A stretch of DNA of 64,000 bases from Escherichia phage Elenatom: the sequence record PP925844.1. One strand, given 5' to 3'. The notes beneath the pieces were generated by a model that did not search any database, had not been told where the DNA came from, and worked only from the letters and a program-made list of their open reading frames with translations. Each line of letters starts with the position of its first letter. Within the stretch, counting starts at the first letter, position 1. The position numbers and the translations under genes were made by a program. Positions 37,851-38,519 of the stretch are shown one piece after another.

Positions 37851-37890
37851 TAGATAGGGTAATAGTATCACTACCCTATCTAAAAGTAAA
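37851..37890 (-). promoter_or_regulatory. PeSL-like cassette: early-type promoter with -10 in loop of 9-bp stem (TAGATAGGG/CCCTATCTA)
   Basis: Inverted repeat flanking constant core aatagtatcac; -35 TTTACT 17 bp away. Confidence 0.55.
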
Positions 37891-37891
37891 C

Positions 37892-38125
37892 TTATTTTTT
37901 ACGAAAAATTGATTTATTTTCTGCTGCCCATTTTTCAATAACTGCAGCAGGACCAGTAACAACAATTTTATCACCGTAATCTTCTGCGGCGAGTTGACCG
38001 AAATTATCTAATGCATCACGAAGAACTCCATGAGGCATTTCACCCATTTTATCTTTCTTGCCAGTGTAAATAAACTCAACTTTTACATCAGCAGTTTCAG
38101 CAATAAATTCTTGGTAAGTTTTCAT
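37892..38125 (-). CDS. Internal protein (IP) with canonical capsid-targeting sequence
   Basis: Starts MKTYQEFIAE (T4 capsid-targeting consensus with protease cleavage motif); 77 aa; early promoter plus stem-loop upstream. Confidence 0.6.
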   Translation of the reverse strand: MKTYQEFIAETADVKVEFIYTGKKDKMGEMPHGVLRDALDNFGQLAAEDYGDKIVVTGPAAVIEKWAAENKSIFRKK

Positions 38126-38151
38126 TTTGATTTCCATTTGGTTTTGTTTTG

Positions 38152-38188
38152 ATAGGGTAATAGTATCACAACTAAAACCCTATGTAAA
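38152..38188 (-). promoter_or_regulatory. PeSL-like cassette: early-type promoter with stem ATAGGGT/ACCCTAT
   Basis: Same constant core, different stem sequence. Confidence 0.55.
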
Positions 38189-38201
38189 CAACTTTGTGAA
38201 A

Positions 38202-38459
38202 TTATTTTAAATCTTCTAATCGTTTCTTCATCTTAGAGCCATTTTTAGCAATTTCTCCTGCATCGGAGCATAATGCTAAAAGTGCTTTAACTTTAGTTTG
38301 GTCTCCTTTAAAAGATGAAGGATCGACCGCAGCAGCAAGTTCTTTAATACGAGAGAAAAGACGCTCAGCTTCAGCTAAAGCCATTCCAAGCTTTACTTCC
38401 ATACCGTGGGAAGATTCAGTGATAGTAGTTTTTGTAGCAAACTCTTTGAAAGTTTTCAT
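38202..38459 (-). CDS. Internal-protein-like protein with variant capsid-targeting sequence
   Basis: Starts MKTFKEFATKTTITE; 85 aa; own promoter plus stem-loop. Confidence 0.5.
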   Translation of the reverse strand: MKTFKEFATKTTITESSHGMEVKLGMALAEAERLFSRIKELAAAVDPSSFKGDQTKVKALLALCSDAGEIAKNGSKMKKRLEDLK

Positions 38460-38481
38460 TTTTATTTTCCTAATTAATTTT

Positions 38482-38519
38482 GATGAGGTAATAGTATCAC
38501 TACCTCATCAGTATGTAAA
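38482..38519 (-). promoter_or_regulatory. PeSL-like cassette: early-type promoter with stem GATGAGGTA/TACCTCATC
   Basis: Same constant core, third stem sequence (compensatory changes). Confidence 0.55.

Follow-up and report, generated by a model that had tools for sequence, protein, structure and literature searches.

[quoted passage not shown] In these phages, terminator activity was found for one stem, and PeSL–PeSL mini-circles were observed, one of them with its junction in the loop (PMC2839356). According to the account given in the same paper, PeSL-like sequences at two T-even internal-protein (IP) loci had been noticed by Repoila 1994; these T-even elements, based on T4 early promoters and having weaker AT-rich stems of variable size, were regarded as analogs, not homologs, of the RB49/phi1 PeSLs (PMC2839356). 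The name PeSL was extended to the T4/PST elements in 2014 (PMC4122927), for which the promoter consensus TTTACW-N17-TAYWAT was given (Comeau 2014, PMC4122927).

We analyzed a stretch of 64,000 nucleotides from Escherichia phage Elenatom (PP925844.1), hereafter the window, which belongs to a Tequatrovirus (T4-like) genome. Many Escherichia, Shigella, and Yersinia T4-like phages are 99.9% identical to it over 37600-39000, and 776 phage records match this region. All genes of the locus are on the minus strand, in the order 57B, 85-aa ORF, 81-aa ORF, 61-aa ORF, followed by two further small ORFs and 11 tRNA genes. The names ip5 and ip6 are taken from the annotation of both ORFs in a close relative, phage JK08; the ip6-like product has 81 aa when counted from the first ATG and 77 aa when counted from MKTYQEFIAE at 38125. 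The two ip genes are the variable cargo of the locus, ip5 between the elements named E3 and E2, and ip6 between E2 and E1. As had been proposed, the elements thus delimit internal-protein genes, assigned by the family matches in Table 1. The equivalent position in T4 is 57B–ipI–trna.4, with two cassettes around ipI as compared with three around ip5 and ip6 in Elenatom. The annotation of 57B (phrog_755) varies among relatives, being either anti-CBASS protein Acb1 or RNA ligase. The tRNA genes occupy 35845-36862 and number eleven versus eight in T4, with no segB homing-endonuclease gene among them.

Table 1 Features of the 57B–trna.4 locus in the Elenatom window
Feature	Position	Strand	Details
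57B	38533..38991	(-)	Upstream anchor of the locus, conserved
Cassette E3, 57B–ip5 spacer, 73 nt	38460..38532	(-)	-35 TTTACA 38514-38519; TGn + -10 TACTAT 38491-38499
E3 downstream signals		(-)	Predicted +1 A 38484; SD AGGAAA; ATG 38459
SD and first ~11 codons of ip5, coding the capsid-targeting signal (CTS)	38424..38467	(-)	Direct repeat of 38090-38133
ip5-like internal head protein gene, 85 aa (MKTFKEF...)	38202..38459	(-)	phrog_3499, E = 1.2e-49
Cassette E2, ip5–ip6 spacer	38138..38201	(-)	-35 TTTACA 38183-38188; -10 TACTAT 38160-38165; predicted +1 A 38153
ip6-like internal virion protein gene	37892..38137	(-)	phrog_8111, E = 1.5e-52
Cassette E1, ip6–trna.4-like spacer, 58 nt	37834..37891	(-)	-35 TTTACT 37885-37890; -10 TACTAT 37862-37867
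E1 downstream signals		(-)	Predicted +1 A 37855; SD GAGGAG; ATG 37833
trna.4-like ORF, 61 aa (MKRCELIRNV...)	37648..37833	(-)	Downstream anchor of the locus, conserved

E1-E3 are elements of an already known kind, the described promoter-plus-hairpin cassettes that flank ip genes and help to reshuffle them, and the original prediction of a PeSL-type match is borne out for every sequence-testable feature of the PeSL description. They resemble the T-even PeSLs of T4 and PST in genus, in the locus 57B–ipI–trna.4, in the promoter consensus, in the variable AT-rich stems, in the SD and ATG, and in the replacement of ip genes, and nothing essential sets them apart. [quoted passage not shown] 3 legend, PMC4122927), whereas those of E1-E3 straddle the -10; this overlap with the -10 is one of the two commonest PeSL positions (PMC2839356). 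With the RB49/phi1 PeSLs they have in common a promoter and a stem-loop within short spacers of a hyperplastic region, small variable genes, and junctions in the loop. The RB49/phi1 elements differ by their near-perfect sigma-70 sites (TTGACA/TATAAT) and their polyG/polyC stems, and it is for these elements only that terminator activity and mini-circles have been demonstrated. As both the idea and the elements were published in 1994, 2010, and 2014, our finding confirms rather than extends the knowledge of this family. Three points go beyond the cited literature: the stems are devoid of terminator features, they pair in several registers with a constrained start region, and they show a G·U bias on the sense strand.

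The core AATAGTATCAC occurs exactly three times in the window (37861-37871, 38159-38169, and 38490-38500), once in each of the short intergenic spacers (58-76 nt) between 57B, ip5, ip6, and the trna.4-like ORF, in agreement with the predicted three elements having a common core and a minus-strand -10 TACTAT. When up to one mismatch is allowed, the window contains 8 matches versus 2.0 +/- 1.6 in shuffled sequence, a count of 8 being reached in none of 100 shuffles. Each copy, read along the coding (minus) strand, gives GTGATACTAT, which consists of TGn and the -10 TACTAT. The promoter layout is the same in the three spacers: TTTACW, 17 nt ending with TGA, and TACTAT, with a G before each -35 hexamer and the motif nnCC[CT][TC]ATC after each -10. 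The distance of 17 bp originally measured from GTTTAC was off by one, since the 17 nt are counted from TTTACW and 18 nt separate the -10 from GTTTAC. All three promoters fit TTTACW-N17-TAYWAT with TG ahead of the -10, as well as the 'UP/-35/TGn/-10' organization of T4 early promoters (PMC2988021).

Upstream of the promoters, E2 and E3 carry the sequence aaaataatttcacaaagttg in common with other early promoters in the window, while the upstream region of E1 is the end of ip6, the -35 of E1 lying one base past the ip6 stop codon. An SD and an ATG terminate every cassette at its 3' end (SD sequences AGGAAA, GGAAAT, and GAGGAG). E3 corresponds to the 57B–ipI spacer of T4, without any difference over the 92 nt compared. 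The +1 positions were placed at the usual distance of 7 nt after the -10, following the standard sigma-70 geometry, and this placement is supported by the CTATC motif, which early promoters that have no hairpin carry at the corresponding site. Judged from these signals, E1-E3 would act as promoters starting at the predicted +1; the literature searched offered no usable map of T4 start sites or terminators.

In each of the three cassettes, the promoter spacer pairs with the bases located just downstream of the -10. The inverted repeat of E1, TAGATAGGGTA/TACCCTATCTA, forms 11 bp (37851-37861 with 37872-37882; register 49). That of E3, GATGAGGTA/TACCTCATC, pairs 38482-38490 with 38501-38509 and is prolonged by one extra T-A pair, giving a stem of 9-10 bp in all (RNA 5' arm 38501-38510, 3' arm 38481-38490). 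In E2, the outer stem ATAGGGT/ACCCTAT is made of 7 bp (38177-38183 with 38152-38158; register 43) with 18 nt between the arms, and is accompanied by an inner 4-bp helix, TAGT/ACTA (38171-38174 with 38161-38164), and by an additional outer helix that includes the -35. The three different perfect inverted repeats originally reported are therefore real, but that of E1 is longer than stated. Between E1 and E3, two neighboring pairs have both of their bases replaced (A-T to G-C, and G-C to A-T), so that the stem sequence does vary with pairing kept, as claimed; E2, on the other hand, has the same right arm as E1 and a left arm 6 nt further upstream, a register shift and not a compensatory change.

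For the sense-strand RNAs of the three regions, the predicted folding energies are -18.5, -18.1, and -17.4 kcal/mol (z = -4.08, -4.80, and -4.64), and the native stability is reached in 0 of 200 shuffles, in line with the structures expected from the original prediction. In a spacer-shuffle test, in which only the 14 unconstrained spacer bases were permuted, the fold was lost at E1-E3 as well as at three additional early promoters (34114, 27562, and 18330), with 0/200 in each case. Eight of the 14 early promoters in the window are hairpin-less despite the same consensus (z about 0). The loss of folding upon spacer shuffling and the existence of these eight non-folding promoters indicate that the promoter consensus alone does not account for the hairpin. 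No Rfam family was matched; the one sub-threshold chance hit, snoZ169, scored 23 bits versus a gathering score of 55.

To compare the stems among relatives, IMG/VR was scanned with the pattern TTTAC-N15-TGATACTAT-NN-CC, which fixes the CC in the right arm, and 95 unique elements were retrieved. The 52 unique GTTTAC (T4-type) elements have a mean MFE of -13.1 kcal/mol, versus -4.4 for the other 43, which are chance matches in unrelated contigs (p = 5.6e-13). The T4-type set contains at least 15 different stems distributed over at least three registers: 49 (22 elements), 43 (17 elements), 44, and 50; many relatives carry AGGGCTAT/ATAGCCCT stems. When the right halves were permuted among elements, a test independent of register, the mean rose to -8.98 +/- 0.40 from the native -13.11, which was reached in 0 of 1000 permutations. 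The 22 register-49 elements were aligned without gaps (A1); in this alignment, 72.7% of the helix cells are paired versus 61.6% after shuffling, and the covariation score is 0.362, as compared with 0.162 for shuffled alignments and at most 0.169 with the partners slid. Two positions have no unpaired cell: pair 19-32 (CG 14, UA 8) and pair 20-31 (UA 9, CG 7, AU 4, GU 2). These A1 counts overstate independence, as the rows were selected for register and the sequences are related; the CC imposed by the scan pattern is a further caveat. Taken with the permutation test and the diversity of stems, the covariation substantiates the earlier claim of selection on structure.

The gene content between the stem-loops also varies, as anticipated, and the breakpoints fall inside the cassettes. 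Relatives possess one to five CTS-bearing ORFs (MKTYQEFI... and variants) between 57B and the trna.4 homolog; the number of elements counted per locus is a minimum, since the pattern TTTAC-N18-TAYWAT, applied strictly, fails to detect many spacers of more distant relatives. From 57B onward, the window and T4 are homologous across E3 and over the first ~11 codons, up to 38425, beyond which the gene bodies of ip5 and ipI are unrelated, ipI replacing ip5 in T4. The T4 ipI–trna.4 element is composite: its left part matches that of E2 (38207-38149, 96.6%) and its right part that of E1 (37871-37610, 92.9%), and the 21-nt shared core is where these matches overlap. The relative L032 has no ip5 cassette, its 57B being directly followed by E2, and ip6 is absent from T4 and from the relative L031. 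The direct repeat formed by 38424-38467 and the start of ip6 at 38090-38133 (44 nt, 77% identity) encodes the CTS and carries the homology block of the cassette on into the gene. The block thus comprises the cassette and the CTS-coding codons (repeat families D1 and D2), and the crossovers lie in its most constant part. In two other relatives, L016 (about 6178-6260) and L025 (5806), the left arm is of the E1 type and the right arm of the E3 type, which gives a broken stem with an MFE of -7.0; L016 has, in addition, a tandem duplication of TACTATtacctcatcaa (-10 and right arm).

We consider it very likely that E1-E3 are T-even PeSL-type regulatory cassettes of the ipI hyperplastic locus of a T4-like phage. 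Each spacer would provide a strong early promoter, with an AT-rich upstream region, the -35 TTTACW, a 17-nt spacer containing TGn, and the -10 TACTAT, followed by an SD. The variable part of the promoter spacer is complementary to the first 6-11 nt past the -10. The hairpin may define where the upstream message ends on its 3' side, by weakly attenuating or pausing transcription and/or by blocking 3' exonucleases, which would leave each ip gene as an autonomous, portable expression unit. The constant parts (AT-rich region, -35, loop with TGn and -10, CTATC start region, SD, and first ~11 codons) would supply roughly 110-130 bp of homology on either side of an otherwise unrelated ip gene body, and homologous recombination in these blocks could insert, delete, and swap ip cassettes. 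Such an organization is reminiscent of the attC-type boundaries of integrons, imperfect inverted repeats of variable sequence and conserved pairing that bound small, swappable, promoter-dependent cassettes. At the Elenatom locus, unlike in integrons, no integrase or site-specific recombination is indicated and each cassette has its own promoter. Internal proteins are injected with the DNA, and each of the T4 proteins Ip1, Ip2, and Ip3 blocks one particular GmrSD-type restriction enzyme (PMC12373910, PMC3012670). Because Ip proteins block restriction enzymes, swappable and self-expressed ip cassettes would offer a direct route to host-range change.

The RNA in which the hairpin can exist is constrained by the promoter geometry. 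The predicted +1 falls within the 3' arm in E1, E2, and E3, hence the RNA initiated at the own promoter of each cassette would lack the 5' arm, and the full hairpin would form only in RNA reading through from upstream. The hairpins of T4 e, soc, 49, and I-TevI (PMC3014915) similarly have a promoter inside the hairpin and are complete in read-through RNA only. They differ in that their 3' arm covers the SD/AUG and their promoter is late, whereas E1-E3 have an early promoter and a free SD. Between the end of the stem and the SD there are 6 nt in E1, 9 nt in E3, and 15 nt in E2, and a hairpin sequestering the ribosome-binding site was rejected for E1-E3 on the ground that the stems stop 6-15 nt short of it. 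Among 46 elements, the stems contain 31 G·U pairs versus 11 A·C mismatches, and the sense strand is the more stable one in 36 of the 46. Both the G·U excess and the sense-strand stability favor an RNA structure on the sense strand.

According to the classical view of PeSLs, the stem-loop is an efficient terminator of the upstream gene and the cassette a terminator followed by a promoter. Indeed, when the stem-loop of RB49 PeSL211/210 was inserted ahead of lacZ and behind a promoter, expression fell about as much as with rrnB T1 (PMC2839356), the T4/PST elements were termed promoter-terminator motifs in the 2014 paper (PMC4122927), and the hairpins of E1-E3 directly follow stop codons. The cited assay, however, used G/C-rich RB49 stems and not T-even stems, which are AT-rich with 3-4 G-C pairs only. 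None of the 46 related stems has at least 5 T in the next 9 nt, the tails being 52% A, and a consensus terminator scan of 36900-39300 yielded no terminator-like site; a canonical intrinsic terminator, with a G+C-rich stem and a U tract, was rejected on these two grounds. In addition, the nearest late promoter TATAAATA upstream of ip5 and ip6 is at 39574-39581, inside gene 1, so that late synthesis of ip5 and ip6 probably needs read-through of E3 and E2. The sequence evidence thus argues against a canonical terminator role of the T-even hairpins, and we regard efficient termination by E1-E3 as rather doubtful.

A possible alternative function, which we put forward tentatively, is that the T-even stem-loops are not terminators and form instead sense-strand RNA structures present in read-through transcripts only, where they would serve as 3'-end stabilizers or insulators of the upstream ip message. 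They could be kept because the free spacer bases repeatedly re-evolve complementarity to the constrained start region, in several alternative registers (43, 44, 49, 50, and 55). If so, the promoter spacer would be a dual-use sequence under RNA-level selection and the 'promoter-terminator' label of PeSLs would need revising. The hairpin seems to be dispensable, as natural chimeras with broken stems persist (MFE -7.0 and -4.9).

The inverted repeats could also act in DNA, hairpin or cruciform extrusion creating recombination hot spots and templated (quasi-palindrome) repair keeping the arms complementary without selection on RNA. The positions of the crossovers, in the loop and core, would suit such a role, as would the RB49 mini-circle junction within the loop (PMC2839356), the GGGC motifs, in some cases accompanied by an inverted GCCC, at which T4 deletions end (Mosig 1998, as cited in PMC2839356), and the AGGGCTAT/ATAGCCCT stems of many relatives. 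Core crossovers are, however, equally expected from plain homologous recombination, since the core is the longest identical stretch. Moreover, folds calculated with DNA parameters are weak (-7.6 to -8.1 kcal/mol), and the excess of G·T over A·C and the favored sense strand point to RNA made from one strand. Maintenance of the arms by events at the DNA level is therefore unlikely.

An operator for a dimeric DNA-binding protein regulating the promoter might be suspected from the location of the palindrome, whose center is at or close to the -10, a place where RNA polymerase would be blocked by a bound repressor. Such a site is very improbable: there are at least 15 different arm sequences, the arms covary instead of being conserved, two different stems (E1 and E3) lie 330 bp apart in one genome, and the half-site spacing shifts by up to 6 bp between registers (i+j = 43, 44, 49, 50). 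We reject a palindromic operator in view of these many stem sequences and registers. That the self-complementarity has no function and arises from the early-promoter consensus or by chance is scarcely credible, given the eight non-folding promoters of the same consensus, the non-folding chance matches of the pattern, and the permutation result, even though the TGn and TAnnnT consensus imposes part of the apical stem (GUG/UAU around AUAC) and the right arm overlaps the CTATC motif of hairpin-less early promoters. The reading of E1-E3 as T-even PeSL-type cassettes, in which the hairpin may act in RNA, is the one we retain.

Hairpins are also associated with promoters elsewhere in the window. The second internal-protein locus is empty: e (30180-30674) is directly followed by denV (29704-30120) on the minus strand, and their 59-nt spacer (30121-30179) contains a single PeSL-like element, TTTACT-N17-TAGTAT, with the arms AATTGTGA/TCACAGTT. 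In T4 the order is e–ipIII–ipII–denV, and every spacer contains an early promoter that bears a hairpin; the left arm of the Elenatom element resembles that of the T4 ipIII–ipII element.

Three further early promoters on the minus strand have a spacer or a stem of comparable design. Upstream of the ORF 17746-18273, the promoter at 18274-18330 (TTTACA-N17-TACTAT) has a spacer segment, CTGTTCCTC, that pairs with the SD region GAGGAACAG in a fold of -23 kcal/mol, equaled by 0 of 200 spacer shuffles. The SD is predicted to be sequestered in read-through RNA and not in RNA from the inner promoter, which corresponds to the logic of e, 49, and I-TevI with an early promoter. In the early promoter of regB (27507-27562; gene 27045-27506, endoribonuclease, phrog_1323), the spacer is likewise complementary to its own SD region (-21.6 kcal/mol, z = -5.0). 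The early promoter at 34061-34114, upstream of a 132-aa ORF, has a 9-bp stem, CAGGCTCAT/ATGAGCCTG (-20 kcal/mol), whose 3' arm overlaps the -10 TATTAT; the same design with different stem bases is observed at the same position in T4 and other relatives.

A 157-aa ORF on the minus strand (34621-35094), from a PHROGs family of unknown function, starts with the CTS-like sequence MKSYTQFLNE. It is preceded by a hairpin and T run typical of a canonical terminator (35141-35168) and by a late promoter TATAAATA (35131-35138). From these features, its product may be a further internal protein, expressed late.
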